A stretch of DNA of 56,646 nucleotides, filler included, from Sphacelaria rigidula (lineage: Eukaryota): the NCBI GenBank assembly GCA_964200075.2. It is 7 parts of 7 records of this genome, joined end to end, with 100 filler letters (N's around TTAATTAATTAA, not from the genome) between each part and the next. Parts side by side here need not be neighbours in the genome. Positions count along the whole stretch, not along the records: positions 16,216 to 24,222 come from CAXNAA020012669.1; 6 more parts are not named here. One strand, given 5' to 3'. Numbering within the stretch: position 1 is the first letter of the stretch; each line of letters opens with the position of its first letter. This document shows, piece after piece, positions 8,404-49,692 of the stretch. The position numbers and the translations under genes are program-made. Below the pieces are notes generated by a model that saw nothing but the letters and a program-made list of their open reading frames with translations, had not been told where the DNA came from and searched no databases.

Positions 8404-11400
8404 CTGTCGAAATACCATGGCCCCACCATTGCCAACAAACTGTTTCACTTCCTTCACTCCCGGGATGCTTCCCGGTCCCCCGAGACCTAGCTCTTCTCGC
8501 TTCGACCACATCAAGCCTACATATACTAAAGCGCCCACCTGCAACATGGACGATACGATGCGCACAAACAACCGAAAGCACATCATGACGTCAAAAAAGC
8601 ATGCGGAGCCCAAAATCTACACGACACATGGCGATGGTGACACGCTCGGCCGAGTACAGTATGACCCAAAACTTTGCCATAACGGTGGGGGCGAAAAAGA
8701 AAAAGATGGAAGGATCGCCATCATGAAGCAGCGGGAGCAAAACAGGGAAAGGGAGACAAGCGGGGGGCAGGAGAAGAGAACACACCAGCAATTTCGTCCG
8801 TACAAAACAGGGGTCACGACCTCCAAAGAATGGCACCACAGAGCACTCGAGATCCGTTGCGTGGAAGAAGAGATCACCAGTGCTGTCATCAATCTCGGCG
8901 CACTTGCTTCGCCGACGCCACTTTATACTCCATGAACGGCAGTGGCGTCTATCGGACAGGCAACCCACCACACTGACATCTGATGTTTTCCCAAAAAAGG
9001 TCTATAGATTCTACCCCACAGCACAGTCAGCAACAAGATACACACTTCGCCGTTGCGGGAACCTGTTAGATTGCCTGAGCTGAGGTTGGAGAGACCATAC
9101 ATCTCGCACGTGGGAGACTGAGGCATCCTTGATGAGAGGGTTCCTGCTGGGACCCTTAACTTGTATACACAAAATGATTTACATTCCCGAACGATCCCGT
9201 TCACTGCGCCGAAAGATTTCGACGAGATACTTCCAATAGCCGAACTTACGGCGTCGGCGGTACGGCTACAGCTCCTCTCGAAAAGATGTTCACCCAGAAA
9301 GTTACACGCGGGGCAATGTGTTGTGCTGCCGTACATACGATAACTCGAGCGCAAGAACTCGCATAAACCCTGTGGCAGTTGTTCCCTACGGCACATATGG
9401 TGCTCAACAGCCCAAAGCTCACCCATTGGGCTGCTGCCGTGGCGATTGCCGCTCCCGCCACGTTTAGCCCGCACGTGAACATGAGAAATGGATCTAGCAC
9501 CACGTTCACAAGCCCCACCACGGCAGCGTTCAAAAGACATGCCTTAGCTTCTCCCAAGCCCCTGCGTCATTGCATGACATGGAAGCCCAGGATACGGAGG
9601 CATGAAGCGGGATAAGGGAGCGATCATACGAACGCCATACATGCTGGGCTGAAATGTATCGAATGCGGCAGTTTGAAACAAATATGCCGCGGCACTACGC
9701 TCCACAGAGGTAATGTTGAGCTCCAATAGATTGTCTCCTCTGAATCAATTTCTAGGCTCACCTCCCACAGAAAGGGGCGGGAAAATATGAGTGGCGATGC
9801 CTTTCGATCAATCAGATCAGAGTCGTTCATGTACAAAAATGCGGCGACATTTCACCGATCAGATGAGAGCAACGAGTGGCGTATGAGTGGAAAAATAGCT
9901 TTGATCGGCCCACATATTGCGCCGCTGCGAGATAGACAGCCGCGACCATCTATCGCCGAGGATACAGCAGCTCGGTGCTAGCTCAGTTTCATTGCCTCAA
10001 CCTGCACACACCCGCCTTATGTGTCTTCCCCGATCGCAGCAGCCGACTACAACTCAAGTACAAAAGGAGACGCAACGGCCAGCTGCACAGCCATCACGTA
10101 ATTGTTTCAACTTTGCATAGACAGCACTTCGATCACACTCCAATTCTGTGCAGACCGAAATACGGCATACAGCAGTACAACTGATCGGGCAATTTGCAGC
10201 GCACACCACACGATGTTCGTCGTAGAGTGTTCAAATGCACAACAGCACAGCGACAACTACAACGTAGAAATGATGGTTGTGGGAAGTGCCTTGTTCGTTT
10301 GACGCGAGATGAAACAGCCAAGATACCATGAACTTTTCAACAGTGTGTAGGCAGCACTGCGTGCCGACTAACATCACTCTTTAGTCCGCTTCTTCTCGTC
10401 TGAAAACAGACTCTCTGAAAACTTCCCTGTTTGATATTCTTATCGCGGATTTTTGGCGGAATACGGACTTTGTCGGATTTGGCCTCCTCTGAAAGATTTG
10501 CTATGTTTCCCACGAGGATTCTAGCGCACTTTCCCGATTTTTCGTACGCCAACTTTTACTTTTGGCCGGCTTTCCGATTTTTTTAGTCGCCCCGAAAATC
10601 GTCCAGTTGTCCGGAAAAGACGTACTTTTCCCCGACTACTCAAAGATTTTGGGACGACTACAGTGTTATTAAAAAAACAGGAATCTGGCTAAAAGTAAAA
10701 CTAGGCGTACGAAAGTCGGGAAAATGCGCTAGAATCCTCGTGGAAAACATAGCAAATTTTTCAGAGGAGGCCCAATCTACCAAGGTTCTTGTTCCGCCAA
10801 ATATCCGCGATGAATGCTCAAAAAGGGCAGTTCTCGGAGAGTCCGTTTTCAGACTATGAGAAATGCCCTTACACAGCAGACCACATTGACAAGAAAACAA
10901 CTCAGGCAGTCCCAGCGGATACCAAACCGTCGTCGCAAAGGTCTACACACACCACAGCGCAGTGACAGCTACAGGACATGAGAGAGGACGTGAGTGTATT
11001 TTGTGCTGCAGTACAGTTAAACAGGACATATTCCATGTGACACTTTTTCCATTGACTTCAGACGACGGGTTCTCCATTTTGCCGAGTGCCGATTTTCAAA
11101 CGCCCGGCCCTAATCGCGCTACGCGCGAAAATCTTTGGACTCACGTTGAGTTACCGCTCTCTGTGGGAGGTGAGTCGAAATTTCGAGAACCCTTAACGCT
11201 ACACGTCACACATCCGTTACACGTCACGTCACGTCACGGCACAACGGTGTGACGTGACGTGACGTATTATTTTTCAAGACGTCACAAATGTGATGTCACG
11301 TATTATTTTTCCAGGGCGTCACAAATATGACGTGACGTGCCGTGTTATTATTGAGACGTCGCATAAACGTATTTTGAAACGTTTTTTTTGGCGTGTAACG

Positions 11401-14737: not shown

Positions 14738-16215
14738 CTGCTGCGGTCAGGTTGACAGGCGCGTCCATAGCAATCGAGAACATATCAACGTGGGGTGGCG
14801 AGGAATGATAGCATGGATACAGACATAAGCACAAGCGATAGAAATTGCTTACAAGAGTGAAGACTACATACTGTACTCACATCGTTAACCCCTAGACAGC
14901 AACCCCCCCCGCAGGTGGACAGAGTTAGACTAAGCCACATCTGGGGTTCAGAACAATCATTTTCTCGCTACACAAAACGCCTTTCTTCGTAATCATGTGG
15001 ATCCTGGGTATCCATGTAGAAAACAGCTCCGGAGAACCCCTGACCGGTATTCGTCGTGCAGTCAAGAGCATACAGAGTCAGTATGTGCGCGGTATGTCTC
15101 CGCTAGATACAACGGCAAGAAAGAGTCAGCGTGCCCTCGCTTTCCACAGAACGCAATTGACTGCATGGTGCTGATGCCTCTGCTTCTAGTGTTCAACAAC
15201 ACTCCGGACAGTGAAGCTATGCTGGCAGCACATGAGGCGTCAGGCAGGCGGCACAAACCTCGAGCAGAGTACAAAACAAAGTCATTAATACCCATGTAAT
15301 CCATGGTTGAAGTGCAATGACAGCGAAATAGTCCCCCTGCAGTCCACCTCTAGGGGAACTACGTGCTCATTTTGACGACCGTGATTGGTCAGAATAGTTA
15401 TCCCGCACCTCTCCGGCCTCGTTCCTGGCTTAGAATCTTCGGCGGGAAACTTCCGAACACACATGGTTGACTCGGTGAGTTTTTCGGCTGCTCTTCGGAC
15501 AGACGCCCCCCTCCCTCAAAAACCACCCCCCCCCGGCTACTGGAAACCCCCGGATGTCTCCGGACTGCCAGCCCGTAAAGCTGTTCCGAGGTGACGCTCG
15601 CTGTCTTAAATTCAACTACAATTGTGACGGTAGAAAAACAATTCGTGTGTTCTGTGGTGCCAGCTGCCAGTTACGAGGTTACGTGCTGTATGCGTTGCCA
15701 GTTGCCAGTTGCCAGTTGGCGTTCGAAGCCCCCAAATCCCACGCAAGGTCCACGCTAGCAATCCTGCAGTAAGCAGTGCCTCGTGCGCAATGCGCTAAAT
15801 ACTGTACCGCATTTCGAGTTCTCCGTTCCCCGTCCTCCAATGAAGGCCATGGCCGGTCTTGTCGGTACGGCGTGGGGAGGGTGTTTTCGGCGGGTGTAGG
15901 GCCGGAATCACTTTCAAGGAGTAATTCCTTCTCACGACCATCCTTGGCCAAGGCCGTGGTGCGATACTAGAGTTGGGTCAGCGCGGTGCTCATCAGGCAC
16001 ACCCACCCCTGCTGTAATACAGCAGTGTGTGTGTTGTCCCATCTATACTGGACGCCAGTCTACCCCTTTCGGGATATGTGGGCGGATCAGCCGGGGTCAC
16101 ACAGGAGGAAGGTCANNNNNNNNNNNNNNNNNNNNNNNNNNNNNNNNNNNNNNNNNNNNTTAATTAATTAANNNNNNNNNNNNNNNNNNNNNNNNNNNNN
16201 NNNNNNNNNNNNNNN

Positions 16216-16342
16216 CGTTTTAAAGTCCGCATCAATCTTCCCGATTGATTCGAGGTCCCAAGGCCTCAAGCCAGAGAGCACAGGTGCGGTAATCATTAGA
16301 GTTCAGTACACTACCTTGCGTAGGTACCTCTCTTTTTCACAC
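16216..16342 (+). repeat. 127-bp perfect direct repeat, copy 1 (putative Penelope pseudo-LTR / element 3' end)
   Basis: Identical to 22036-22162. It begins with RFKVRINLPD*, reminiscent of a GIY-YIG C-terminal tail. The true left edge is unknown because it coincides with the contig start. Confidence 0.9.
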
Positions 16343-17058
16343 GTACATCTTATGATAGTATCCTCGTGCTATATACCAGGATGACCGTCGCAAGCCCGGT
16401 CTCGGCCATCAACATATTCGTGTGATGATCCCCGCATTGACAATCCGTCCATCATATGACGTCAACGAATATCGGGTAACAGATACCTGTTCTCCAATCA
16501 ACGTGAGGTTGGGAAGATGAAAAAAAACGGGGGCACATGTACATCGTTCTCATGATGACAGCGACGTGCTACGGAGAGGCCCCTCGACTGCAGGTCTGAC
16601 GGGGCTGCATTAATACGAAAATGAGTGCGAAAAACCGTCGTTGTACTGCTACGCACCCTCGCCGGGGGAAGGAGCTGCAGTGTGACTGGCCCGGGTGAGA
16701 GAAGTGCGGAGCATCGAGCGTGGCGATCGAGCGGAAGAGTCAACGAGAGCCTTGCAAGTGCAATGTATATCAACCTAATATGAAGTAAGGTAGACGTCGG
16801 GGTGTTCATACCTTGATCGAAGACGCAATGTTTGGGCCTAGTACAAAGTCCTTGACATGTGGCACCATGCATTGCTTTGCACTTGATGTTGAACACCAGG
16901 ACAACCCACCTTCTTGCTTCGAAGGTAGAGGTACATGGCGTCTCTATGGGGCATGTGCTGTCCGAAACTTGCGGCGAAGTGATCGAGAAACGCCACGACG
17001 TGCTCCTGTCGGCTGCGTACCTGTGAGCTATCAGCCCTGCATGTCAAACACGTTGTAG

Positions 17059-18608
17059 GAGAAACGCCGATGGATCGACGTGGTGGTAGGTTGGACAGTG
17101 CGGAGGAACGTCGAATCAGAATCGTCACGGCACTCGGTCGATCGAAACTCGGTATAACGTGGGCTGCGCCGCTGTCATGCACTCATGGTCTGTCTGTACG
17201 GGCTTGAAGAGAGGGTGCTGTTGGCACGGCGATGTCGACGTGCGGGATAGGTGCCTGTGCGATAGGTTGTGGGGGATTCAAATTTAAATCCCATGCGTTC
17301 AAATGATGCAAGCGCTACACGGTGACGTTTGCTACACTGCGCTGGCGCTCGGGATACATTAGTGACACCGCGACCCCATTGCTTCGCCGTGAACTTGTGC
17401 TGACTGCAGAAGCTGTGCACTTTTGTGAGGAGCCGCACGCCGCCATGATGGATCGGTGTATGCGCTGCGACCCAACTGAACCCATGAAAGCATGCCGGCC
17501 ACATGAACATCGACCAGCACTGGAAACAATGTATCCATTTTCAAACATTACCCCTGTTCCGGTCAACAACGACAGGTGAGCACCGCAGAACGACGGCGGA
17601 GTACAGTGCTTAAAACAAAAACAAGAAAAATCTTTTCGGTTGACCTTTCCCTGTGCCCCCGCCGGCAGGTACGCCCAGATACACCGAAAGGTGTACACCG
17701 GCGTGCAGGCGTCCAGAATAGATGGGACGATAAGCACCCGTGCACACACCCATACATACACGCACGACCCCGCGTGGTCGGTGTAACAATTACAGTGCAC
17801 AACGAGCACGGGCGACGGGTACAGCCTGAGTAGTTGGTCTCGATCCCGCAGAACATTGTAAGTCATGGCACGAGATACCTGTTGAGGACTACCGAAGATC
17901 GTGGGTTCCTCTTCGCGGACTCGATGGTGTTGTGCGACACTCGGAACGCGAGTGCGAAAAACGAGTTACAAACCAGCTAGTTCGCCGCTAGCATGGATCC
18001 CCGATTTTTTCTGAGCTTCACAAGTAGCACCGGTCGACTCACCCAATCCAGCCGCGCGCGACATGACCTCGGTTTTGCAAACTCCGATTGCTCTGCGCGC
18101 AGTACGACGATATCACGGGCACCGCAAACTAAACCCTCAACACACTTCAGTGTCTTGCAGCACTGAAGTGACATCTGCATCATGTCTGTTACGTCGGTAG
18201 TACCCGGCCGTGTCGTGCTCTTCGAATCGTTCTGAAGGGATCGGCTTCCCGAGTCTTGGGCTATACTGCCCCGATGTACGAAGGAGCCGTGGAGAGGTGG
18301 GGTGCTTGGGCTCATTTTCTGGAGGGGGCATGGGCTCAGACCTGCGGGAGAGGGGACATCATCACCTCCAGGTGAGGGTTTCCCTGGCCGCTGACGTTCA
18401 CGTTGGGCGAACACCACCCGACTTGCCACGTACGCGCTCATGTTGCAGTGCTGCGAGGTGGACTTGTCCGCTGCGGGCGGACAGTGTGTCGTTTGAAAAC
18501 TGCTGCTCACGCCCGACTTGTCTGCCCGTCGGCGCCCGGAAGGCGTCCAGCGTATCTTCTCGGATGAAAGTTCACAACGGTCGGATGAGCTTCCTAAATC
18601 TCCGTTGA
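17059..18608 (+). pseudogene. Decayed spliced SAM-dependent methyltransferase with beta-class N6A/N4C DNA-MTase-like motif order
   Basis: Exon-like 17059-17575 reads IRIVT....KLGITW...RA*REGAV...GFKFKSHAFK*CK...SNITPVP, resembling the RxLKxGG and GF...W-x-K motifs. Exons ~18237-18371 and 18449 onward, joined over a 77-nt phase-0 GT-AG intron, read LGLYCP...CLGSFSGGGMGSDLRERGHHHLQ|CCEVD: FxGxG plus an acidic motif II at canonical spacing. There are three TGA stops and no intact (D/N/S)PP(Y/F). Confidence 0.5.
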
Positions 18609-19117
18609 ATATCCGTGCACGATGCATAGTACCCCTTCATTCAAATGAGCGGTTGTAGTAATCGCAAACAGTGGCATTGCGCGGGGTTTCTGATCTGAAA
18701 ATTTTATTCCGTTTTCGTGTTCCGTTTGTACTCCTCGCACATCGCTCCATGCCCGCACCGGGACCCCACGTGTATGCACGGGTGATTAGTCCGCAAAAAC
18801 GAACGTTGCGAAGCCGCGTTCCAAGAGGAGGAGACGTGGTCGGTGGGATAACCAAAAATACTCGTCGTCACACATGAAATACGCGTGTCCACATGCCACA
18901 ATCAGTTTTCCCGCAGTGAGATGCCACTGACATATCGCGCATGTCGGCGCGGTAAATAACGGGTGACCCGCGCTACGAAACGGAACACAAATGGCGATAC
19001 CATATCTTCCCAAATTACCGCGCCTGCAATCCCACCTCCTTGCATACACACCGCCCTCCACTTCCATAGAGCAACACAAACCGCCATCGGTTATTCGCAT
19101 CCGGTGCCGACGGTGGA

Positions 19118-22035
19118 ATGTCTGGGGCCGTGGCTGATGTGCGGGGGGGTGCTGGGCCCGAAAAGCGGGGTCACAACAGCCAGGGAACCCTCGCGAACAG
19201 TCTAACCCGGAACTTCATCGCTTGCTTCGACGTGCCTCTTAGCCAAATAAGGCTGACGGAGTTCACGCGCCCGCTGAACGATAGAGGTATAGATTTGATG
19301 GTGAAGTCCATCACGGACAAGGGATGGCTCCCGCACGCCGAGCCTGCGCTAGTCGTGGACAGGGAAGGGCTGCCGCACGGCGAGTTCACCGAGGACTGCA
19401 TTCCGACAGCCGTCTACAAAGTACTTGACGGAAACCATCGACTCGCAGCGGCCAAGAAGATCATGAGCGCAGAGACGAGACTACGCTGCCGTGTGCACTA
19501 CGCGTTCGATGCTGCTGCCATGAGGGTCTTGGGCGATTGTACGTTTGCCGCGTGCCTACGTTCCCGCTTGTGTTCCCGCTTGTTGTGAATCGACGAACGG
19601 TTTGTGGCGTGCGTGCAGCATTTAACAGTCGGCGGTATTCACCATCGATCTCAACATGTGACACAGATACCCCACATGCGCTCGCCGCCCCGCAGCAAGT
19701 ACCAGTTTTGGTAGCAATGTCTCAAGTTTCATGTGCTCCAGTGGCGCGGTGTGCTGTCTACTTATGTGCCATCTTTTGTTTTGAACCACATGCCCCGCAT
19801 TTTGAAGGTCGAGGAGGACAACTCTGCGGCTGTAATCGTCCTGGTTGTTACACACACGAAACGGCCTCCCCGAGAAGAAGTAGGAGAGCAATATTTCCTG
19901 GCGAGATTCGTTTGTTTCACGTTCGAAATTTGGCGCAGTCCATGTGGTCATGAAAAGGGTTCGAGCACGTACATGTTTGCTGATCCCCCGCACGATATTG
20001 AGGCACCCCATTGAGCACCGCAGGGATATGTATCGCATGCCCGCACAGCATAGATCTGCGCAGGTGTCAATCATGTCACTACTTCCTTTTCGGACATGAA
20101 TCTGGCTTTAGACCGGCTTCCACCGCCATACCAGTAGTTTACGTTTGCTGGTCCCTTTTTCCCCGCGCCCCCTGCTTGCACATCTTGTTTATGCTGTAAC
20201 AATCGTGCGGCGTTCAGCAGCACTCAATGATGCCACCGAGACCATAACCGCGCGATCAACGTACGACACTTTGTACCTTCACGCCGAGAACATAAAGGGC
20301 ATTAAGGAGAGGACGAAGAAGTCAGAGGTCACCGCGCAGGAGATGGCCGAAGCATACAGGACGGTGCGTATGTACGTCAGGAATGCTTCAATGCGTATAT
20401 CCCCTGCTGCCTTGAATGCAGCGGTTTTTCCCCTTTGCTTCACTTTTTTTTTCGATCGAAAACAACTGTATTATCTGATAGGTCCACCGCATTTATGTTC
20501 CTCGAAGGCTTCAACTCAAAATCTTGATTAGAGCCGCGCGGAAAAATACGCAACGAGTGAAAAACATAGAAATCGATCGAAAACGTGCAATCGACAGGCA
20601 CGAAGCCGCACTTCACTCTTAACTTACAGACCACCACGCCAAATATCACCCGTTCACAAGACTATGCAAACTCCATCCAACTCATTCTCAGCTACCAACG
20701 CAACCCTGCAGCATGGAGCAAGAGTTGAGCACAGGGATAGATACACGAAAGTAGTTGGGTGGTGCATTGTATTTTTTTGGTGGCGAGAACTTGCGCATCT
20801 TCTCTCATGGTAGTCATGAGGGACGGAGCTGCGCGCCGGTATTATGGGCAGCCGAGTTGAGTGCACGCTCATGGACAATGCAGGCAGGACAAAGCTGCAC
20901 GTTGCTGAGGTTATTTTGGAATCGCTTTGTAAGCAGAGAGAACTGATAGTCTTGGGCGATCTACACTGCACATTGTCCGCTTCCCCTTTATTTTCTCCTG
21001 CGCGAAGCACGCACACACGCACTCACGACACCCTACTTGCAAGCAGTGCAAACAGTACGGACCATGTACCGTGTCACGATTTTTATCGTCTTCTTTCGAT
21101 CGAAAGCTTGAAGATTCATTCGGACCCAACTGCATCAAAACAACTTTTCACTTGATTCGATTCCACCGCTCGTCTTTTCGATGGAAGAAAAACGTGATAA
21201 GACACGCCCTGGGCACATGGATTGCCGGTGGGGAAAGTGCGGTGAAGAACGAAAATCTTGTTCTGACAGGTCGCAATTAAAAACCATCGTCGATTATTTT
21301 CAAGATGGGTAAAACCATGACCTATCAGGTACGGACCTTTGTCTTCCACCGCACGTTTTCGATCGAAAACGCAGGTGCGAACACAAGCCCCGAGAGTGAA
21401 AATCGGCCGAGTAGTGTATGAATTGTTCCACTTCCGACATGCCCCTCCACGAGGCCCAATACGCGTTCCGCAGTAGCTTAGCCCTGAGGCCCTTGACATC
21501 CCTGACTTGGTTATCGATGTGTACCTTCAAGTGCACGCCAGTGATTGAGGCAAAAAAAAAAAAAACAGAATGAACACTTAGCTGTTTTAAAGCGAATTGT
21601 CGCAGCCATTCTCAGTCGGCGCTCTACTCTCAATAATATGACAACGTTGTCATGAGGTGTGCTCAGTGTTGACTGTGCCGTCTGCCATGCCCGGAATTCA
21701 CCCCGCTTGAAATGAGACGGGCGCGCAACCGCCGCAGTCCGGTGATCCCACGACGCCGCAGTCATGGTCGGGAGGTTCTCATGGCTCACACACACATTCT
21801 CCTGCCCGCGTGCTGTCTTCAAATCCTTCTTCCCGCGGACGTGCGAACCCCGCAGGCAGGAATCAATCCACCCAGCGTTCAGACGCTCCGGATCTGGAAG
21901 AAGGCAGTGTGTGGTATGTCTCAGGAAGGGTTTGAGGCAGTCCGCGACGTTTTCCAAAGCGCGGACGACCCTATTAACGCGAAGCATGTGTCGCTAAATT
22001 GTTTCACACGCAAGAACTTCTCCGCCATGAAGGGT
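19118..22035 (+). CDS. Intron-containing ParB-like protein (ParB/Srx N-terminal domain plus HTH), cut at its 3' end by the Penelope-like insertion
   Basis: Exon 19118-19538 gives VPLSQIRLTEFTRPLNDRGIDLMVKSITDKGWL...YKVLDGNHRLAAAKK. It splices in phase 1 to 20221-20363 (SLNDATE...VTAQEMAEAYRT), then in phase 0 to 21856-22035 (AGINPPSVQTLRIWKKAVCGMSQEGFEAV), reconstituting a ParB-type HTH across the intron. Extra exons within 20364-21855 are not excluded. Confidence 0.8.
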
Positions 22036-22162
22036 CGTTTTAAAGTCCGCATCAATCTTCCCGATTGATTCGAGGTCCCAAGGCCTCAAGCCAGAGAGCA
22101 CAGGTGCGGTAATCATTAGAGTTCAGTACACTACCTTGCGTAGGTACCTCTCTTTTTCACAC
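22036..22162 (+). repeat. 127-bp perfect direct repeat, copy 2 (putative 5' pseudo-LTR)
   Basis: Identical to 16216-16342; the offset is 5820 bp. Confidence 0.9.
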
Positions 22163-22510
22163 ATAGCTAACCTTCACCCTACCCACCTCGTGCCAGACCC
22201 AGCCGTAATTGCCCGTTTGACTAAGACGGGGCACCTGTATTTCATTATACATAAGGTGGCTGTGGTCCTGCACTGCTTTTATAATAGCTATAAAAGCACT
22301 ACCGTCCACTCTCGGAAACCTCAAGTGTTCGGTAGACCATTACTCACCAAAACGTGTGTAATGGTAGAGTTTACGCTTCATTGCGCTCAAACTCGATTCT
22401 GTACAGAAAAAGTCAACCTTCACCGGTTACACACCTGTACACCTTTCTCATAGTCCTCAACCCGGAACCATTCTGTGCCAAATTTCCGCACGTTGTACAG
22501 ACTGCAGAAG

Positions 22511-23770
22511 ATGGATACCACCCACCGAAAACCGGGTCTCGCGTACAACAGGCTTACAAGTCTTTTCGTGGCGGAGAAGAAAAACATCCGCAAGTCGTTC
22601 GAACGCCTGCTACTGCTCAACCATTCGCTGGAGGAACAGAAAAAGTCGCTCCAGGCGCTTCACCACGCGGGGACTTTTCCCAAAAGTCTCACGATTCAGC
22701 CCGCTACAAGTCGAGTGCGAGCAGAGTTACCCTATATAGATGGAGGTAGAGCTTACGAACAAATGCTTGCCGATGTAGATGCAGCCAACAAGAAATTCAG
22801 GGAAACCTCAATTGGTGACCTTGGAAGAGAGGCCGCACTAGTGAGAAAGGACATTTCCAAGTTGCTGTCAGCCGAAGAGTTACAACGTCGTGTAGATACA
22901 GCTGTTGGCATATTCGGCTTGAAATGCCCTATTGTGTATAGACAATGGCGACAACAGTACCTGGGAATAGATAGTTCGACTGCATCTCCCCCCGAACCCC
23001 CTACAGATTCACCGCAATCTAATGGAGGCGGCGGAGCTGCTATGAACTTAGAAGAGGATGCAAGTTCTAGTGCTAATTCTAGTGTAGACTCAGGTTCACT
23101 TAATTTGAACCTCCCACATACCGATGGGTTTGAGAACATACCCCTTGCGCAACCCGCTGCTCAACCCGTTGCGCAACCCGTTGCTCAACCCCCTGCACAG
23201 CCCGCCGCTCCGGCGGAGCTTGCACCCTCTGCAGTCTCTCCAAAAATAGCGGAAATCCAAAACACATTGAAAGATGTCAAACTCTTGAAAGAAGAGGATC
23301 TGCACATTCGAACGGAGAAAACTGCTGCCGCTAAAGCTGACAAACGAGCCAAAGCGGCATTAGCTGCTACGGATAGCGAGTTGTCCTTGGAGTCTCTGCA
23401 TGCTTCCATAGTAACCCTATCGAAAAGCATAGGCAACTTGAAAAGAGGCAGAAACACAACCACCCCGGGAAACAACTCCCAGAACGTTGGAAAACACCAA
23501 AAACGCCCTGGTAAACCTCCCAAGGGCAAAGCCCCTTTCCAAAAGGGACACAACGTTCGCGCATCCATTTCCAGTAATAATAAGCAGCAGAGTAAAGGTA
23601 AAGGTAAACCGAAGCCCAAGCAGACAGCAGATAAAAGACCCCCCCCGCAGGGTAGAAATACTGCTAGACGTAACTCTTCTGTCGCACAGGAGAAACAGGC
23701 CAACGTTTCTAAGCGTACTGCCGAATCAGGTAGCGCAGCCCCCCGGAAGAAAGTCCGTGAGGATTTTTAG
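22511..23770 (+). CDS. PLE ORF1 (419 aa from the first ATG): helical/coiled-coil N-terminus, AQP-repeat linker, Lys/Arg-rich C-terminus
   Basis: The longest intact, intronless ORF in the window. It contains AQPAAQPVAQPVAQPPAQPAAP repeats and a very basic tail (KGKGKPKPKQ...PRKKVREDF). Confidence 0.8.
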   Translation: MDTTHRKPGLAYNRLTSLFVAEKKNIRKSFERLLLLNHSLEEQKKSLQALHHAGTFPKSLTIQPATSRVRAELPYIDGGRAYEQMLADVDAANKKFRETSIGDLGREAALVRKDISKLLSAEELQRRVDTAVGIFGLKCPIVYRQWRQQYLGIDSSTASPPEPPTDSPQSNGGGGAAMNLEEDASSSANSSVDSGSLNLNLPHTDGFENIPLAQPAAQPVAQPVAQPPAQPAAPAELAPSAVSPKIAEIQNTLKDVKLLKEEDLHIRTEKTAAAKADKRAKAALAATDSELSLESLHASIVTLSKSIGNLKRGRNTTTPGNNSQNVGKHQKRPGKPPKGKAPFQKGHNVRASISSNNKQQSKGKGKPKPKQTADKRPPPQGRNTARRNSSVAQEKQANVSKRTAESGSAAPRKKVREDF

Positions 23771-23843
23771 ATCCCCTGGTAGAGGTAACGAGTATCTATC
23801 GGCGTGGGCTCTCTTCCATACTCGTTGGAGGACCGAGAGATAG
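23761..23843 (+). promoter_or_regulatory. Putative programmed -1 ribosomal frameshift signal (slippery G_GAT_TTT, TAG, downstream stem/pseudoknot)
   Basis: The heptamer 23761-23767 is in X_XXY_YYZ phase. A 9-bp stem forms between AACGAGTAT (23787-23795) and ATACTCGTT (23818-23826). Loop CTATC and TCTC are complementary to downstream GAGAGATAG (23835-23843). Confidence 0.75.
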
Positions 23844-24222
23844 GAACATAGGGTACAAGCGTACACTTAAGGCGAAGAAGTGGAAGCAGGATAAAAGCAC
23901 GAGATTGACTGTGAAACGTAAGGCGCGACGCCGTAGGCTTAGGAACAAAATATTCCGTGAGCTGAACACGGAAATTAACAACCTGCCATTGACACATGTC
24001 ATCATTCGTCAGATTCGTTCCCTCCTCCCTGTACTCTTGAAAGAGAACGTCAAGGTCACCAACACCCATGTGATTGGAAACGTACCGACATTGCCACCTG
24101 CAGTGGTCTCGCTTCTTAGCAAAGGCTTAGCATGTGCTATACCATCGACCCGTCCGTCCAAATGTTTGGACACTGCAGTACAGCAATTTTTTCACCGATT
24201 AAAAGTGAAATACAAATACGGT
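23761..24222 (+). CDS. PLE ORF2, N-terminal part (RT polyprotein); no ATG, -1 frame relative to ORF1
   Basis: Open from 23761 (directly after TGA 23758-23760) to the contig end: GFLDPLVEVT...KRKARRRRLRNK...LLSKGL...FFHRLKVKYKYG. Confidence 0.78.
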
Positions 24223-26989: not shown

Positions 26990-28217
26990 GGGGGCTTAGG
27001 CTACTTCTTATGTATAAAACAAACTCTTGTCAGAAAACGCGTTTTCTGATAAATGACCAAAAACCCACTTCTTGTGAGATCAGAGAACGCGTTTTCTGAT
27101 GAAATATTATCTGGTATCATTTTCCGATAGCCCAAAGTTATCAGGAAGTTGAACAGAAAATCGTAATGTTCTGATATTGGGCTATTGAAAAATGTTATTG
27201 GAAGGCTTTTAAACACACCTTACAGGCCACGACAGCACCTGTGATGGCTTGGCTGCCATCGCTACTGCTGTCGCTGGTGCTCGCGGGCATTCAGCATGTT
27301 GCACCATTGTCTTTCACTCGCCAGTAGCGTGGTGGCCTTCTACTCCATGAGAGTAGTAGAAGGCAGGATATATGACGAGTGCTGTGCAGACAGGACAGTC
27401 TATATGTAGTCCGTACAATGTTGTAGCTCAGTTTAGGTCTGTGCACGCAGCGTGTTGCGAACAGCTGTCGCAATGCTTTACAGACTGCCCACGCGCCCAA
27501 GCCTTGTAGAGATAGGACCGGACTGGCGGTACACACAAGGCTAGAATATAGGTAGTGCTGCTACTGTAGTACATTCAATGCAAACAGCACAGCGCTGTCT
27601 GTACTGTCGTCCGTGCTGCCCGTACAATCGAGATCTACAACAGCAGCGAATTTGAAGCCTGTGCATGCAGCGTGTTGCGAACAGACGTCGCTTTGCAGTA
27701 CAGACTGCCTCCGCACCCAAGCCTTGTAGATACAGGACCGTGCTGACAGTGCACACAAGACTAGGAATAGTGCTATTGTAGTACCACAGCCAATGCATAC
27801 AATGCAGCACTGTCGTATGCCCTGTTGTCCGTGCTGTGCTTCCAGTCAAGTACTACGAGTACCGTGCAGTGAAGAAGCACAACCGTCACTTCTACAGTCA
27901 GGTTGCACAGTAAGGGGGTGTTCTTATCGATTGTCTCGGGTCACGCAGCCCACCATGTATTGCTCAGGCAATACGTCACCGTGGTACAGACAGTCAGCAG
28001 GGACCGTACACCACGACAGGACAGCAGAGTGCTGCGTCTCTCTCGCGCGCCCCAGAATTTTAAAAATTATGCCTGCACACGTCATAGAAAACGATGAACA
28101 CTGCGTTTTCAATGTTGATAGTGCGTCGATCACGTAAGAAGGGCTACTTCGAAAAATTATGTGAAACCTCGCTCTGTTGAAAAACGGCTTTTCTGATAAA
28201 GTATTTTTTTATACATA
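26990..28217. mobile_element. Non-autonomous TIR element (GGGGCTTAGGCTACTTCTTATG family), right end truncated
   Basis: Colinear with the copy at 48800-50325 plus 55697-55825. It has internal ~200-bp imperfect duplications. Another terminus of this family lies at ~41335-41363. Confidence 0.7.
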
Positions 28218-31079: not shown

Positions 31080-31470
31080 TAATGTAGGTACCCGGTAGCG
31101 GTATTTGGGACATATCATACCCTACCGATACCGACCCAATCCGGTATTTTCAAATGTCATACTTACGATACCTGCGATCCCAGGGTATTTCGAGATTTAA
31201 ATGCCTACCGTACCCGCCCAATCGGGTATTTCGAAATCCCATACCTACGATACCACGGTATTTCGAGATTATTAAACCTACTGCACCCGCCCAATCCGGT
31301 ATTTTGAAATCTCATACCCACGATACTTACGATACCAGGGTATTTGAAGATTCCAATACCTACCGTACCCGCCCAATTCCGGTATTTCGAAATGTCATAC
31401 CTACGATATCTACGCATACCACGGTATGAGATACCCCGGTAAATACCGGGGGTACCTCCGGTATTTACCG
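31080..31470. repeat. Imperfect tandem array (~75-80-bp unit built from GGTATTT/ATACC motifs), probably MITE subterminal repeats
   Basis: CCCAAT(C/T)CGGTATTT...CATACCTACGATACC...GGTATTTCGAGAT recurs about four times. Confidence 0.7.
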
Positions 31471-34110: not shown

Positions 34111-36962
34111 TGGCATCGAGGCAAATAACGACGGTCGCGTAGGTTTTGTGGTTCGCCATGCCAGGGAAAGAGGAAGCCATGAACGAACGGAGAACACGAG
34201 AGAGGGACACGAACGACACGAGGGACACGAGGGACAGGATGTGGAATAACTAGTGAGACACGCCATGTTTCGTAATGGGTTGCCGTATCAAGCACTTCCA
34301 CTAGCATGCTATCGACTGAGGTCAACAAACCCACCGATAAACAATACAATGTGTACTGGCTGATCGAGAATAACGCCTTCGATCGAAGAAAAGTATCATG
34401 GAACATGACACACAAGGTCAACAGAGGCAAGCACGTGGGCAACGAAAACACGCATCTCGTGGTTATCGAGAGCTTCTCCGAAAAGGACGCGACGTAGGCC
34501 GCCCTCGGCTCAGAACCAGAATGGACGCACCATTGGTCGCTGCAGAAATCATCATGCATCAGCAGTTGAGCAGTGCACTCGAGCACTAAGGTCGTACGTG
34601 TAGAAATCATGATGAGTGTCGGGTATTTCTTGAGCGTAGAAACAAAACGAACGAAAAACGCGCATGAGTTTTATTTGTTTCCAAAACATCTCCATAGGCA
34701 CCATGTCCAGCGAATTAATCACCACGAGACCTGTGCCTACGAATATCGACTCGAGACAACCACCCACATCGCCGAACAATGATGGTCGCGCAAATACTCA
34801 TGCGTCTGAAACTCTGACACAGACGAAACGGTCGAATTGGAACACGTGAACATTACTCGAGCACAAACAACGATATGGCAATAACCGTAGAGTTATATTA
34901 GTCTTCGTCCAACTTCGCGGACAGCCACCGCAAGCAACGTGCAAGACCAGGCGAACAGCTCCCTTAGTGCAGAATTCACACAGCATGCCAGCATGAACAT
35001 GTTGGACACGTTAACCTCTGTCATCATCACGGCACCGGTGAACGGCCTCAGACAGACAAGGCTGCCGACCGAAAATTCCGCCATCATGCAAGATAAAGAT
35101 ACGACTGGGAAGATCACAGACTATATACTTTTGACCGATAACACGCTTAGGAAGGGCCCCCGTGCTGTATTTAATACACGGTACGGTGCACGAGCAAGCC
35201 AACCATTGCACCGCGGTCGTAACGCGCACGCACAGACGCACATGAAAACTGCAAACAGGTAACACGCGCATACAGACCGTAAATAAATACCACGATCCAG
35301 ACATTATTTCACGATACAAGCAACAAACAGCGCTCTACGGTCTTCCCAACCCCTCCCTTCACCCTCCATGCCACTCGCCAAAAACACCACGGCGCTTCGT
35401 CCCGGCTTTGTAGGGATGCGAGGTCAATGGCCTCATGCCTACGGCACGCATGATCGTTAGTAGGGTCCCGCCATCGGCTCCGCGCCCCCTGGCCTCCCCG
35501 AGACCCGGCCGCCCCCCCCGGCGCCCCCTCCCCGCNNNNNNNNNNCTCCTCTGCGTTCCGTCCCGGCTTGGTAGGGGGGCGGGCCACATGGCCTCGCTCC
35601 TCCGGCACTCCTCATGTTGGAGCCCCCCCCCGCCCCCCCCCCCGCCATTTTCACACGTTCGACACCTCCTCCTCGGGGTGAGTCTGGAGGTCTCGCAAGT
35701 CTCAAGCATTCACCCCTTGTTCCTCGCCCGGTCCATGTCTAACGAGTTTTTATCGAACAAGCGGGCCAGCACTTATGCAGCCTGTCGGCCGTCACATGGA
35801 CTCTTTCATTTTCCATACATCCATTTTCACGCTCTCCACGAGGGGCATCAGATTATGTGCTGATAAATTGCGTATGTAGATACTCTCAACCGTCAAGTCC
35901 GCCACACAATCGGTTACGGTAGAAAAACACGCTGACCACCGAGACACAACGGAGAGGGAGATACCAAAGTGGCACCCAGTGTTCTGGTTGGCTAAAAGAG
36001 AGCTGTACGCACTCCACCAGTCAGATTGGCGTTCCAACTTCGCTCTCTCCCTCTACCCCCTCGCAACTGTACTATTGATGACAATATTTGCGGCAGCCTT
36101 GCTGTGCTACGAACGGATTAAAATTTACCATCAACCAATCATGAAGGATTGGTTTATTGGATAACTCGACAACGAATTGTAACAAGGCGCATAGAGATTC
36201 TATGGATGCGCTACGGTAGAGTCACACTTCTGAATACTGGATATACAGCGGTCGTCCGCAGACCGAGCTCAATTTGACGATACAGTCGCTTGCAAGACCA
36301 CGCGCAACCGTACAATCACAGCAATATACTATCGCGTATCTACCCCCAATATAACGCAGTAACGATAGCGCATGTGGTGCCTACGCCCTGTCGGGCACTG
36401 GATGCTACAATACATAGTTTTTGTCCTCTCTTCATCGAGGTTGTCCTAGGTAGTGGACGCCATGCACAAGCTCTCTCGAACGTTGATATGTCTTGCAAAA
36501 AAATCACACGAAAAAAATCTCCCCGGCTATTTGGAATGATGAAAACATAGTACCCGTCATTTTCTGATTCATCGTGGGGCGGAGACACACTGAAGAACAT
36601 CGCAAGTTCATCATACACTTGGATCTGAAAGATGTTTTAATCCAAGATACGCAAACAACTTCGAACTACTGCAAGGAGAGGCATCCACGCCCTACACGCA
36701 GAGGCGGACGACACGGACATAAAGCACAAGGGCACAAACGTAGATGCGCTGGGTAGAAAAAAAACTGACAAGAAAAACAGTGAGATCGAAATCGTGGAAG
36801 AGCGTATGCGACCCCACAGTAGGATCAACATAGATGAAAGGGGGGAGGGTATCCATGTGGAAGTCATTCTACCCGAAGAGATTGCGGTTACACAACACAT
36901 CCACACAAGATACCGCGCGTGAATGAAGATCAGTATGCCTCGTACGGGTGCCTTCAAGACGT

Positions 36963-42802: not shown

Positions 42803-42852
<50 letters not shown>

Positions 42853-45800
42853 GTGCGTGTGTTGTCATCTCATCTATTCTGGACGCTAGTCTACACCTTT
42901 CGGTATACGTGGGCACAGCGAGGACACAGTCGCTCTCCACTGTTGGGCAAGGTGTGAGAAAAAACCCAGATCGTGTAACTTCACCGAGATTCGAACTCAC
43001 GACCGAACCGTCAGGAGGTTTCGAGGCCACCAACTGAGCCACCGGGGCGGTCGGCATGTACACTTCAAATACGACCGCCCAAGGTTTGGAATTCTGGCGA
43101 ATGTAGACAATACTGTAATTACAACGCTCAGCACGGCTCTGCGTATACCAACTTGCCATGTGCTTCTTCAAGGCCCCGAACGTACTGCTCCGTAGGCCTA
43201 GAACAAGCGAAAGCCAGTTCACGGGTTCACGACTTAGCTCCGAAGATTCGGGAGTAAACCACGGTGCGTCGGAGTTCCATGTGATGTAACTCCGCAAACA
43301 GCGGTCGGATCCAACTTTATTTATTTGTCGCACTTTGAATTTATATTTTATATATTTATTTGTCGCACTTTGAATCCTCCCCGTCCTCGGGACGAGTCCG
43401 TGGTCTCAAGGGATTAACCCATCTCTCCCCGGTACAAGGGTACAAGTGAAACCAGATAGGGCGGAAGGATACCGTTCGGATCTCTTCATATCTCATCTGA
43501 GTAACAGGTGGAGTTTATATGACGAGAGTCGACGCAATGGGGCAGTGCCGATAGTCATGATCCAATCCGTGACACCAGAAATGTAACGCATGTACGGTGC
43601 CGGGGGAGGCATGTGCTAATCCCTTGAAAAACACGAACACGTCCCAAAGAAGGGGGGAGATCAAAAAGTATGCCGAGAAAGTAAAAGAAAAAAAGCGCCA
43701 TATTTCAAATGTAATGCGCAGGGGGGTGGGTAAACGGATTCACCGCATCACGTCAACGCAGGTGGATTTATCAGGAGTTCGACGGCCTCGCCGTAGCGAA
43801 AACATTGTATCGTCCCAAAATGCAAACGATGGTCCATGCACGCCCTTTCAATTCACCTGAATAACGACGATCGGTGTCCAATGCTCACGAACGCGTCCAC
43901 GCCAGACGTCTGTACCCACTGGTACAGTTTGGCCTCGTTCGCCTCGTCGAGAGCAGAGGTAGCTTCATCCAGGAACACCACTGTGGGGGTGTTCGTCAGC
44001 AGACGAGAAAACGCCAGCCGCTGTGGAAATACGGATACGAGCATAAAGACGAGCGATACAACAACAATATTAGTCGAAGAGTGCAAACTTGTCGGTGGTG
44101 CTAGCGCCGCGGGACTCGAGAGGGCCCAATATTTCGCCTGCTGAACGTCGTCTCAAGCATACGTGACTGAAACAAAGAACCTGTGTACCGCAGGAGCCCA
44201 GTGTAAGATTGATCGGTACTACAAAATTCACGCGAGAGTGAATCGAACCTGCTGCTCTCCCAGGCTGAGCTCGTCCTGCCAGTCTCTCGTTTGCTTCAGG
44301 CCTCCGTACCGCTTCGACAGGTATCCGAGTTGAACATTTTCAAGAATGCTCTCCAGCGCCGAGTCAGTTGCCAGGGACCAATCCTCAGACGTGGGGTACA
44401 GCATTTGAGCTTTCAACGATCCCAAGGGAAGGTAGGGTTTCTAAGTGTGATAACGGCGGGAAAATCGGATACAGGGGAAGGAGAGGGGGGGAGTCGAAAA
44501 AAACAGGGAATATTTGAAGACAAAGGCAGGCGTGCACGCAAAACCTGCAACCGGAACTTACGCAGCGGTCTGGCGCTCTCGAGGAACTTGATCGCCGGAT
44601 ACATATTTTGCACAGCACAACATAAAGAAGAGACGTGAACACGATGTTTTCATCATGGGAAAGGGTCACACTGGTATCTTCATGCGCCAAATTAACGAGT
44701 GTAACGTCAACATTTGCGAGGGACGAACAGCAACTATTCTTTGTTGGGCAATGCACATGCCAGCCAAAGCACGTGTGCCATGAAGACGAGACGGCGTATC
44801 TCCTCGATCTTCTCTACCATATACCGACAATAGGACATCCGGCGAACGGGCATGGTCATATTCACCTGCGGTATGAACATGTTCTTCTCGTCGGGTTGCC
44901 GGCGTACGGTGCCGCTGCCGCATGTCCACAGTCCAGCTAATGCCCTTGGGAAGCGCACAGAAAATGAAAGACGAAGACGAGAATCAATCGATCAACCAAA
45001 TCATCGAAGACGAGACGAAAAAAGCAACGCGAGAGCAAGACAAAATAACACGAAAGATGGACTAGGCGTGGGAAACAGCGCGTGCGACGACAAAAATATT
45101 GGAACACGAACTTCCACGACAGACCACGAAATCATCAGCACGCGAGAGCAGGCTATATGAGACGCATCTTCGGAGAATGCTGGTCTTCTCCTTGTGTGAA
45201 TATGTTGCGATGAAACGGCACCTGTGACTTACCGTAGCAGCGACGATTTCCCGCAACCAGACGGGCCAAAGATGAGCACCGACTGCCCTTGCTTCACGCT
45301 GAACGATAGCCGTCGGCAAATGACGTCCTTACCGTCTGGCGTGAAGAGAGTCATGTTCTCACTGTGGAAAATGACGCGACAACGAGGGTTGAGGGTATCA
45401 AGGGCAATATAATTCCAAGTGCGACTGAGCGTTGCCCACACGTTGCTCGCGTTCATGATGTTTTCTTTGTTTGACCTCGTGGTATTTTGAATCACTGTTG
45501 CCCTGACAAAAAAAAAAACGCACGGATTTGTCAGTTGACACATGGGCTACTATTGTGCATGAGGCGGAGTTGCATGGCGGTCACAACTGGGTCTTTCAGG
45601 AAATGCTCAAGAGTCGCGATCAGCCCCGTCAACTCTGTGGAACATGACGGTGGCATATGTCATAGCATAATCCTAGGACCGAAGCTCAAAAGAGTTTGGC
45701 GGCGCGTGCACGGCGCCAAGTTGATACGGGGTTTTAGTGGGCGCGACCCCCACATTGCCTTGAGCAGAACCTCCGAATGCTCGAGACCTCTGCCCCACAT

Positions 45801-48540: not shown

Positions 48541-49692
48541 NNNNNNNNNNNNNNNNNNNNNNNNNNNNNNNNNNNNNNNNNNNNTTAATTAATTAANNNN
48601 NNNNNNNNNNNNNNNNNNNNNNNNNNNNNNNNNNNNNNNNAAACAGTTCGCAAGTCGGGTTGCCCACTTGAGCCTCAATTCAGAGTTGAACCTCAATTCG
48701 CACAATTTGCTGATGAATGATACATGTACATATTATTCAGGGCTGGTTCAGGCTTATCACCCAAAAAACACTCATCGGCAAAACCTCACGCCGTCTTGAG
48801 GAGTTAGGCTACTTCTTATGTGTTCAAAACATCTGTCAGAAAACGCGTTTTCTGACAGAATGTTTCTGATCACATTTTTTGATAGCCCAAAGTTATCAGA
48901 AAATCAGAATTTCCCGATTATCTCGGGCTATCAAAAAATGTTATCGAAAAACCTTTGAACCTCGTTTCAACACACCTTACAGCCCACGACAGCACCTGTG
49001 ATCGCGGACATTCAGCGTGTTGTATGATTGTCCTTTACTCGCCAGTAGCGTGGTGGCCCTTTACCCCATGAGAACAGCACAGGGCAGGGTCGATGACGAC
49101 TGTTGTACAGACAGGACAAATCAGAATTTCCCGATCATCTCGGGCTATCAAAAAATGTTATCGAAAAACCTTTGAACCTCGTTTCAACACACCTTACAGC
49201 CCACGACAGCACCTGTGATCGCGGACATTCAGCGTGTTGTATTATTGTCCTTTACTCGCCAGTAGCGTGGTGGCCCTTTACCCCATGAGAACAGCACAGG
49301 GCAGGATCGATGACGACTGTTGTACAGACCGGACAGTCTGTGCTGTATGTCGTCCGTACAATAATGTAGCTCAGTTCAGGTCTGTGCACGCAGCGTGTTG
49401 CGAACAGCACGCACCCAAGCCTTGTAGAGACAGGACCGGACTGACAGTACACACAACACTATAGGATTGGTGGTGCTACTAATGTAACACATCCAACGCA
49501 TACAACACGACAGTATTGTCTGTACTGTTGTCCGTGCTGCCCGTACAATCGAGTACTACAGTGCAGCGGACTTGCAGCTCAGTTCAGGTCTGTGCATACA
49601 GCGTGTTGCGAACAGACGCCACTTTGCACTACAGACTACCTGGGCACCCAAACCTTGTAGATATAGGATCGTACTGACAGTACACATCAGAC

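Follow-up and report, generated by a model that had tools for sequence, protein, structure and literature searches.

The contig studied here carries a brown-algal gene that encodes a ParB-like protein of bacterial type, and a young retrotransposon cuts this gene in two (Table 1). It occupies positions 16216-24222 of the window (the whole stretch of Sphacelaria rigidula DNA analyzed, 56,646 nt), which comprises seven contigs sorted by size (8008-8006 bp), with 100-base N/TTAATTAATTAA linkers between them. Three ParB-like exons lie within 19118-22035 and are separated by GT..AG introns of 679 and 1492 bp with consistent phase. An earlier note on this DNA had described + strand ParB exons in a unit bracketed by identical 127-bp repeats, and both descriptions were confirmed: the two copies of the repeat, here called X, matched exactly (127/127 bases), and exons 2 and 3 were matched by a spliced homologue.

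Table 1. Features of the contig, in window coordinates
Feature	Position	Strand	Remarks
Repeat X, copy 1	16216..16342	+	127-base identity with 22036-22162; contig base 1
Candidate ParB exon 3 remainder	16343..16419	+	25 codons from 16345, possible GT donor 16420; weak
Stretch without detectable coding homology	16420..19117		formerly "MTase-like exons"; runs into 5′ region of ParB-like gene
Decayed dispersed SINE-like repeat, CA-rich tail	17641..17765	+	also on two other contigs
ParB-like exon 1	19118..19538	+	ParB/Sulfiredoxin-fold domain, VLDGNHR box
ParB-like exon 2	20218..20363	+	homologue matches; GT/AG and phase consistent
Five parS-like palindromes, consensus TTTCGATCGAAA	20450..21368		cluster in intron 2
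Old dispersed repeat	20627..21000		nested in intron 2, splits palindrome cluster
ParB-like exon 3	21856..~22035	+	homologue matches; cut by the retroelement at 22035 or a few codons away from it
Repeat X, copy 2	22036..22162	+	5′ pseudo-LTR-like repeat; CAG/GTGCGG splice donor at 22104
Retroelement ORF1	22511..23770	+	419 aa, no family match
-1 ribosomal frameshift signal	23761..23827	+	G GAT TTT heptamer, 8-nt spacer, H-type pseudoknot
ORF2 start	23761..24222	+	K/R-rich block, then motif; contig end cuts ORF2

The ParB-like gene and the palindromes in its second intron

Exon 1 encodes the N-terminal fold of the ParB/Sulfiredoxin (Srx) superfamily with its nucleotide-binding box. It had 102 representative relatives (E ≤ 0.001) and matched the ParB-like family phrog_4715 in PHROGs (E 3.6e-4). 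The AlphaFold model (pLDDT 87.7) was matched in Foldseek by ParB 6sdk (E 2.9e-5); all 13 listed of the 13 matches at E ≤ 0.001 were ParB, Noc, PadC or Srx, and VIA aligned the model with PadC (Z 9.5, rmsd 2.5, 91 aligned). Residues G69, G105, N106, H107 and R108 were nearly invariant in an alignment of 88 family sequences. Prokaryotic sequence matches of the protein were confined to the VLDGNHR box.

The two downstream exons were conserved across the family. In tblastn, the spliced homologue P0007 matched exon 2 (43%, E 4e-9) and exon 3 (31%, E 2e-5, reaching 22023); phmmer matches of exon 2 were P0007, P0050, P0044, P0111 and P0093, and exon 3 also matched P0111 (34%, reaching 22032) and the family HMM (32.6 bits). 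A six-sequence profile, considered for the HTH question, had no relevant PDB match. The family comprises over 100 clusters at 50% identity; 11 of the 30 clusters checked had a named member, and all 11 were brown algae. In Pylaiella, three fragments that overlap and belong to one family protein carry nearby accessions, and for two of them a 229-kb contig is listed, which hints weakly at local arrays.

Within intron 2, the palindromes were perfect at 20450, 21094 and 21357 and had two mismatches at 20571 and 21176; a sixth, also with two mismatches, was found at 17136. At two mismatches or fewer, TTTCGATCGAAA, a motif picked after the fact, occurred nine times in the window and six times on the studied contig (2.62 expected), and 0 of 100 shuffles reached nine matches. 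TCGATCGA occurred five times on this contig and 0-1 times on each other contig. The old repeat that splits the cluster matched about 51199-51588 on another contig (nhmmer, E 6e-21). The intact protein may bind these palindromes as ParB binds parS. Bacterial ParB/Noc/PadC/KorB proteins, with their CTPase domain and parS, share the ParB/Srx fold and a nearby palindromic site, whereas the gene studied here is spliced and eukaryotic and is known from its sequence and a fold model. PAG3 of red-algal Plavaka/EnSpm transposons is described as having a ParB-like N-terminal domain and adjoining inverted-repeat arrays, which are proposed self-binding sites and resemble our cluster; in the same description, PAG3 differs by its 2OG-oxygenase domain, with the methyltransferase (MTase) encoded by a separate gene, PAG2 (bioRxiv 10.1101/2025.02.11.637652). 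In contrast to those arrays, the repeats found here are five spaced 12-bp palindromes inside an intron.

Repeat X and the retroelement

The second copy of X opens a retroelement, at the place where the earlier note had put a Penelope-like element (PLE). A candidate 404-nt 5′UTR intron (22104-22507) ends right before the ORF1 ATG; a similar 5′UTR intron is described for Chlamys-3_cRei and Penelope (PMC8557442). ORF1 overlaps ORF2 at the frameshift signal, the pseudoknot of which (S1 23776-23783/23795-23802; S2 23786-23794/23819-23827) had a score equalled at 4 of 600 random window positions; the simple MFE fold at the site was unremarkable (z 0.09). The contig ends 154 codons into ORF2, and the reverse transcriptase (RT) position lies beyond it. 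Where tried, ORF1 and ORF2 had no match in Pfam, PHROGs, NCBIfam, PDB or Atlas. Past its K/R-rich block, ORF2 has a motif that we take to resemble the N-terminal region of Penelope-type RTs. The retroelement itself is present, and its Penelope identity, which has no database match, is suggested by architecture and by this motif.

Features that the element has in common with described PLEs are a direct terminal repeat, a candidate 5′UTR intron across the repeat/body boundary and a K/R-rich block ahead of the RT N-terminus, and some PLE types are drawn with an ORF1 likewise set off by a frameshift and pseudoknot (PMC8557442, PMC3846280). The listed Ectocarpus PLEs are of the Chlamys type with an EN-RT ORF (Chlamys-1 is noted as lacking a pLTR), whereas our element is known from its pLTR-like repeat, ORF1 and ORF2 start alone. 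Rfam gave no match in the contig at E ≤ 1, and no canonical hammerhead core was found on either strand of 22000-22520; a hammerhead near the pLTR is absent in most Naiad/Chlamys elements. The segment 22163-22300 folded unusually well (z -4.2). The element could also be a Ngaro/PAT-like DIRS element, for which the supplement of PMC12477816 lists A-int-BAB split repeats; X would then be repeat A and the sequence from 16343 onward repeat B, and the rest of such an element would lie past the contig end. The ORF2 start looks Penelope-like by the motif mentioned.

Copy 1 of X sits at a contig boundary, and therefore no true flank exists to its left. We read it as the final 127 bases of the terminal repeat of the retroelement, and it is probably an assembler k-mer vertex. 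Because X starts at contig base 1 and 127 is a standard k-mer of assemblers, its length was probably set by the assembly, and the matching 127-base ends probably mark the place where the assembler broke the sequence. A 10-N gap, typical of SPAdes scaffolds, was present inside another contig. De Bruijn overlaps at contig ends are likewise exact standard-k repeats from base 1; unlike in a pure k-mer overlap, the 3′ divergence point of X (16342/22162) is biological, and what depends on the assembler is only the left end of X and the way in which the loop is traversed. X was absent from the remaining six contigs of the window.

The sequence between copy 1 and exon 1

The earlier note had read 16343-19100 as MTase-like exons, and this could not be sustained. 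No MTase family was found in its 34 + strand ORFs (Pfam, PHROGs), in six stop-to-X frames (Pfam) or in three stop-to-X frames (NCBIfam). A purpose-built profile of 57 phage beta-class MTases gave this stretch no more than 0.1 bit and placed it 49th among 1360 window rows, and a motif-I sub-profile gave at best 1.0 bit (control median of 13.5 bits on true motif-I pieces with half of the residues randomised). Motif IV, [DNS]PP[YFW], was absent from the three + frames, and FxGxG-like words occurred twice (0.9 expected). The sequence thus gave no sign of a ParB fusion to a beta-class N4/N6 MTase with motif IV followed by motif I.

Downstream exons were likewise not detected. In six homologues, exon 3 is followed by a conserved helical region of ~100 residues, which had no positive-scoring match anywhere in the window; in leave-one-out controls, the same profile gave 12-81 bits for five of the six homologues. 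Since both this region and a detectable MTase are missing, 16343-19100 does not represent the 3′ half of an entire ParB-MTase gene. That a complete ParB-HTH-MTase gene is nevertheless present in permuted form, its MTase too diverged or decayed for profiles, is very improbable. Such fusions exist in Ectocarpus according to PMC12477816, exon-like pieces with fair splice sites occur at 17410-17575 and ~18261-18371, and, by eye, the long C-terminal part of one Pylaiella relative looks MTase-like; however, this part had no match to the beta-class profile (its single-sequence model, at pLDDT 36, was unusable), and 2.7 kb would not hold several hundred codons together with introns as large as those of this gene.

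The part of the SINE-like repeat at 17641-17758 recurs on two other contigs, at 42833-42914 and 16036-16115, with ~73% identity; nhmmer gave E values of 3e-7 and 7e-7. The copy at 42.9 kb has a tRNA-like A/B-box head by eye, and ARAGORN found no tRNA. The 5.7-kb unit showed neither a transposase nor terminal inverted repeats that convince, and the contig, from which the outer flanks are missing, has no transposase. A 10-bp inverted repeat starting CACTG lies at 18143-18170. If the loop were a real extrachromosomal circle, an excised or amplified transposon derivative bearing parS-like sites, this repeat could be the end-to-end junction of a CACTA-type element. A circle would yield the same assembly graph, and the palindrome cluster is real, but we regard it as the least probable account: the unit has no replication or transposase gene, the window has 10 perfect inverted repeats of at least 10 bp, several of which overlap, and the 8-nt spacer of the CACTG repeat conflicts with the 2-bp TSD listed for Ectocarpus EnSpm (PMC12477816 supplement).

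The sequence immediately after copy 1 may continue exon 3. GT occurs at 22034-22035 and again at 16343-16344; if it is counted a single time, 26 codons stay open, as the earlier note had stated. The continuity of exon 3 into 16345 onward is weak. The 25 codons resembled the continuation of the family weakly (P 0.006-0.06), by statistics chosen after the fact: an anchored alignment with five homologues was equalled by 113, 38 and 19 of 3000 random segments (three gap penalties), and the 25-mer was equalled by 23 (fixed offset) and 134 (free offset) of 4000 random 25-mers and, in an HMM test with a gain of 2.4-3.1 bits, by 246 of 4000 random segments. Homologues retain a hydrophobic run ending in R at roughly equal distance, and the invariant Q of the family had no match in these codons. 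Should k = 127 have set the left end of X, the true junction could be a few bases further upstream, and the overlap in GT would then count for less.

Origin and significance of the interrupted gene

On balance, we favor a ParB accessory gene that is incomplete and belongs to a locally duplicated segment, which the contig shows in circularly permuted form. The spliced gene would be of the kind borne by brown-algal DNA transposons as accessory genes. A young Penelope-like retroelement would have entered exon 3, giving left half, X, element body, X and right part, and the interrupted segment would be present at least twice in direct orientation (duplicated in tandem, or as a unit flanked by direct repeats), and a breakpoint would fall soon after the retroelement insertion. 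A short-read de Bruijn assembler would then meet a loop through the 127-mer X and print it as X, exon 3 tail, non-coding DNA, exons 1-3, X and element. Because the unit lacks an MTase and the rest of the gene, it would be a truncated copy. The shared GT at both junctions, the open frame and the modest similarity of the next 25 codons argue moderately for the permutation and collapse that the earlier note had proposed; the MTase that it had proposed was not detected, and the helical region downstream had no match. Giant Ectocarpus DNA transposons are described with fixed nested insertions, local hopping and a ParB-MTase accessory gene (PMC12477816), and PMC3846280 describes collapsed, circularly permuted Penelope copies and 5′ junctions formed by microhomology without TSD.

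Two independent same-orientation insertions of one young Penelope-like family, 5.7 kb apart, are possible but unlikely. The contig would start one k-mer inside the upstream copy, 16343-19117 would be DNA upstream of the ParB gene, and the 3′ half of the gene would lie past the contig end. This explains the contig start 127 bases inside a repeat and, without further assumption, the missing downstream exon and MTase, and it agrees with the small HMM gain at the junction. However, it leaves the GT overlap (1 in 16), the 25 open codons and the homologue similarity (0.6-6%) all to chance, and it requires a second identical copy nearby, X being found in none of the six other contigs.

It is improbable that the 5.7-kb piece with its introns is cargo that the element carries between two pLTRs and would mobilise in trans, with a short ParB protein ending at a stop in X (22066-22068). 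PLE cargo has precedent in rotifers: for Adineta vaga, pLTR-framed intron-containing genes and host DNA captured ahead of the 3′ pLTR are described (PMC3846280). In addition, exons 1-3 have open frames and undamaged splice sites and run in the same direction as the element. No outer TSD is visible because both ends are contig ends. But X cuts an exon, so that the gene is not framed intact and insertion fits better than cargo, and the sequence past copy 1 looks like the continuation of the cut exon, which capture does not predict.

The closest described counterpart of the gene, the 1104-aa ParB-like plus N4/N6-MTase accessory protein of the Ectocarpus transposon Sola1-1_Ec32, is also brown-algal and spliced, has a ParB-like N-terminal domain and is proposed to bind its own transposon (PMC12477816). 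Compared by description, our gene differs in that no MTase, transposase or terminal inverted repeats were found with it and in that a retroelement truncates it. Among longer proteins, no relative was found, which is weak evidence.

On this reading there is nothing unusual about the locus: it combines a truncated accessory gene of transposon type, a retroelement nested in it and an overlap left by the assembler. Both ParB-MTase cargo of transposons (PMC12477816) and Penelope elements were known from Ectocarpus beforehand. The module, which the earlier note had called unusual for this lineage, would not be new to it. A more far-reaching reading, which we consider doubtful, is that brown algae harbor a very large family of ParB-type proteins, encoded by spliced genes on transposons, which clamp onto arrays of parS-like TTTCGATCGAAA sites within the very gene that encodes them; the bacterial ParB-parS system would thereby be reused in eukaryotes. 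The GATC core would be markable by MTase-bearing members of the family. The contig would then represent one copy that was multiplied, as a tandem array or a circle, once a Penelope element with two ORFs and a frameshift, from a clade outside the listed Ectocarpus PLEs, had inserted. Binding of their own DNA by algal transposon ParB proteins is a published proposal, and the palindrome cluster, as a concrete candidate site, makes it directly testable. The ORF1/-1 frameshift/pseudoknot layout of the retroelement differs from the listed Ectocarpus Penelope families and may widen the range known in brown algae.

Repeat X and the retroelement downstream

The seven contigs of the window were sorted by length (8008 to 8006 bp) and separated by 100-base linkers. 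In the contig at 16216–24222, the two copies of repeat X matched over exactly 127 bases, as the earlier note had claimed. Copy 1 began at base 1 of this contig, and the point at which the copies diverged (G at 16343 versus A at 22163) is biological. The left end of X, and hence its length, was probably set by the assembler, because copy 1 starts with the contig, 127 is among the usual k values of de Bruijn assemblers, and a 10-N scaffold gap on another contig, itself a hint at the assembler, is of the kind written by SPAdes. Exon 3 homology extends to 22023–22032, which places the true 5′ junction at 22035 or within a few codons upstream of it. Searches for telomere repeats and a hammerhead near X gave no clear result. 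A sequencing-run search, which was not counted as evidence, found part of the stretch in 11 of the 12 listed rows, none with half of its words, and listed no RNA run containing it.

Coordinates of features in the window
Feature	Position	Strand
X, copy 1	16216–16342
X, copy 2	22036–22162
Unit between the copies	16343–22035
ParB-like gene, exon 1	19118–19538	+
ParB-like gene, exon 2	20218–20363	+
ParB-like gene, exon 3	21856–~22035	+
Five palindrome copies, intron 2	20450–21368
Sixth palindrome copy	17136–17147
Start of element body	22163–22300
Splice donor / acceptor	22104 / 22507
ORF1	22511–23770
ORF2	from 23761
ORF1/ORF2 overlap signal	23761–23827
SINE-like repeat	16026–16115	−
SINE-like repeat	17641–17765
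SINE-like repeat	~42830–43050	−
Inverted repeat	18143–18170
Two-contig repeat family	27000–28200; 48800–50300
Tandem units and TGACG-rich clusters	31130–31410; 11220–11350/13078–13170
10-N scaffold gap	35536–35545

Copy 2 was followed by a retroelement, as previously noted, with a 419-aa ORF1 and, shifted to the −1 frame, ORF2; its putative identification as Penelope had no database match and is based on architecture and on a motif by which the start of ORF2 resembles the N-terminus of a Penelope-like element (PLE) RT. None of the databases searched with ORF1 and ORF2 confirmed a PLE RT, the RT region lying beyond the contig end. A motif-based collection of reference Penelope RTs yielded 16 loci, and the nine with the motif in frame were short ORFs lacking an RT motif. 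Endonuclease-deficient PLEs are known from a diatom. The element may instead be of the Ngaro type, whose A-int-BAB ends would likewise place new sequence after A.

The first 138 bases of the element body folded well relative to shuffled sequences (z −4.2) and had no Rfam or canonical hammerhead match. Where the two ORFs overlap, a G GAT TTT heptamer is separated by 8 nt from an H-type pseudoknot whose stems are 8 and 9 bp long (score equalled at 4 of 600 random positions); this junction is a predicted −1 frameshift signal of textbook form. A splice donor within X and an acceptor three bases upstream of the ORF1 start would yield a candidate 404-nt 5′UTR intron spanning the repeat boundary. PMC8557442 reports such an intron for Penelope and Chlamys-3_cRei, and according to its Figure 1 legend some types of PLE have an ORF1 together with a frameshift and a pseudoknot. 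Chlamys PLEs are present in Ectocarpus according to PMC12477816; the Ectocarpus PLEs listed lack the two-ORF frameshift layout seen here.

The ParB-like gene and its interrupted third exon

The ParB exons of the earlier note belong to a real gene: exon 1 had family matches, exons 2 and 3 were backed by spliced homologues, and the model showed a ParB fold. A search with exon 1 gave 102 matching representatives (E ≤ 0.001), of which 30 passed 1e-10, the nearest being a Sphacelaria rigidula protein with 94% identity. A named member was present in 11 of the 30 clusters looked up, and all were from brown algae (Sphacelaria, Ectocarpus, Pylaiella, Choristocarpus, Laminaria and Undaria). Most relatives were short ORFs ending at the end of exon 1, and the first intron is therefore common to the family. 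The predicted structure of the exon 1 product (pLDDT 87.7, 88-sequence alignment) resembled ParB, Noc, PadC and sulfiredoxin (Foldseek best E 2.9e-5; VIA comparison, Z 9.5, rmsd 2.5 over 91 residues), and PHROGs and Atlas agreed with ParB more weakly. Given this fold, phycobiliprotein PDB matches of the ParB profile were attributed to chance similarity in a DGN helix and set aside. No HTH was demonstrated after the ParB domain by profile search.

Among longer proteins, the exon 1 search returned 0 of 412 candidates and a 75-sequence profile 0 of 8000; a 5-sequence profile found 4 of 8000 proteins near its length, one of them new. None of 223 and none of 480 candidate stretches were confirmed in JGI metagenome scans, and viral scans gave no usable locus. 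Locus L001, on a phage-like contig of 411 kb that had no blastn match to the window, was rejected as a 20-mer match due to chance; also rejected were L138–L140, which shared only the VLDGNHR box and had no MTase in their ORFs. Unrelated to the window, L001 carries a small ParB-like ORF (9740–10129) and a short unit repeated in ORF translations (~17000–19500) that suggests a CRISPR array. The Pylaiella proteins P0064 and P0127–P0140 formed one 24-member cluster of fragments tiling a long protein (in order: ParB, a helical region, an acidic and Cys-rich part, an unassigned domain and a C-terminal part); some of the fragments overlap and have accessions close to one another, a hint that several copies lie locally.

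GT was found at both junctions with the frame open beyond, as had been pointed out. The first 25 codons after copy 1 encode a hydrophobic run ending in R, spaced as in homologues P0149 and P0107, and leave the invariant Q of the family unmatched. This similarity was equalled by 113, 38 and 19 of 3000 random open window segments at three gap penalties, by 23 of 4000 random segments without gaps when the offset was fixed and by 134 of 4000 when five offsets were allowed, and by 246 of 4000 with an HMM. In leave-one-out comparisons, the next ~100 family residues scored 12–81 bits for five of six sequences and nothing for the sixth (26 residues); no score above zero for these residues was obtained anywhere in the window. 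The space available was 2.7 kb, versus 2.2 kb for the two known introns alone. Thus, the unit can be no more than a truncated gene in permuted order, and what stands of the permuted-gene claim is that the first 25 codons, and only these from 16343 onward, may, judging from sequence, continue exon 3.

The weights given to the readings are our own judgement. We lean slightly toward one in which the element inserted into exon 3 of the ParB-like gene, the segment would be present in at least two copies in direct orientation, and the assembler would have followed the loop from one pass through X to the next before continuing into the body of the element. A pair of independent insertions, which we consider rather unlikely, best accounts for the missing exons but requires three small coincidences. 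That the 5.7-kb piece is cargo between pseudo-LTRs has a precedent in PMC3846280, yet this would not predict the cut exon and is very unlikely. A free circle had little support and is the least probable reading. Overall, the earlier observation was confirmed in part and its interpretation supported in part.

Search for a methyltransferase and other repeats

The MTase-like exons that had been proposed (METHYLTRANSFERASE) could not be detected: Pfam, PHROGs, NCBIfam and a purpose-built profile all lacked a match in 16343–19100. No MTase family was found in the 34 plus-strand ORFs of this interval with Pfam or PHROGs, or in frames with stops written as the letter X with Pfam (six frames) or NCBIfam (three). 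The profile, built from 57 beta-class MTase domains of phage loci and run without filters, scored at best 0.1 bit (49th among the 1360 rows for the window), its motif-I sub-profile 1.0 bits (rank 37 of 1819) and its motif-IV sub-profile 3.1 bits (rank 10 of 1961); [DNS]PP[YFW] was absent. True motif-I pieces scored a median of 13.5 bits with 50% of residues randomised and 5.2 with 60%, so only a very decayed MTase domain would escape. A whole permuted ParB-MTase gene had little support and is highly improbable. Pylaiella P0137, judged by eye a degenerate MTase, found no support in Pfam, PHROGs, NCBIfam, PDB or the MTase profile.

The exon-looking piece at 17641–17765 was rejected as a SINE-like repeat also present on two other contigs. 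This family has a tRNA-like A/B-box head, a conserved ~60-bp body and a (CA)n tail, and Ectocarpus 'unknown4' families likewise have a (CA)n right end. A perfect inverted repeat of 10 bp, starting CACTG and with 8 nt between its arms, may mark where two ends of a CACTA-type element meet and is near chance level. Elsewhere, a family common to two contigs had internal units of ~217–220 bp (about 80–90% identity), and 73–83-bp tandem units and TGACG-rich clusters are perhaps transposon subterminal repeats.

Palindromes in intron 2 and published systems

The parS-like palindrome TTTCGATCGAAA, which has a GATC core, occurred five times in intron 2, and three of these copies were perfect. At ≤2 mismatches, this motif, chosen after the fact, had 9 matches in the window versus 2.62 expected (0 of 100 shuffles). 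The sequence TCGATCGA occurred five times in the contig at 16216–24222 versus 0–1 times in each other contig. An old 370-bp repeat interrupts the cluster, and without it the five sites span ~550 bp. The palindromes were rejected as MITE arms (poor inverted similarity past ~16 bp); an unrecognised nested element could be their source.

In PMC12477816, Sola1-1_Ec32 encodes a 1104-aa ParB-like plus N4/N6-MTase accessory protein, and giant DNA transposons carry nested insertions, described as fixed; the underlying Ectocarpus consensus sets may already contain the ParB-like family or the PLE. ParB-HTH-MTase fusions of phage origin are reported for chlorophytes and chytrids in PMC4738411. No description of the ParB-gene/retroelement repeat arrangement was found in the literature covered, which included few subscription papers. 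Algal transposon ParB proteins are proposed, in bioRxiv 10.1101/2025.02.11.637652, to bind inverted repeats located next to the gene that encodes them. By analogy, the palindrome cluster would fit this proposal, and on a rather long-shot reading the locus would belong to a large family of brown-algal transposon genes that forms a eukaryotic, self-binding ParB-parS system.
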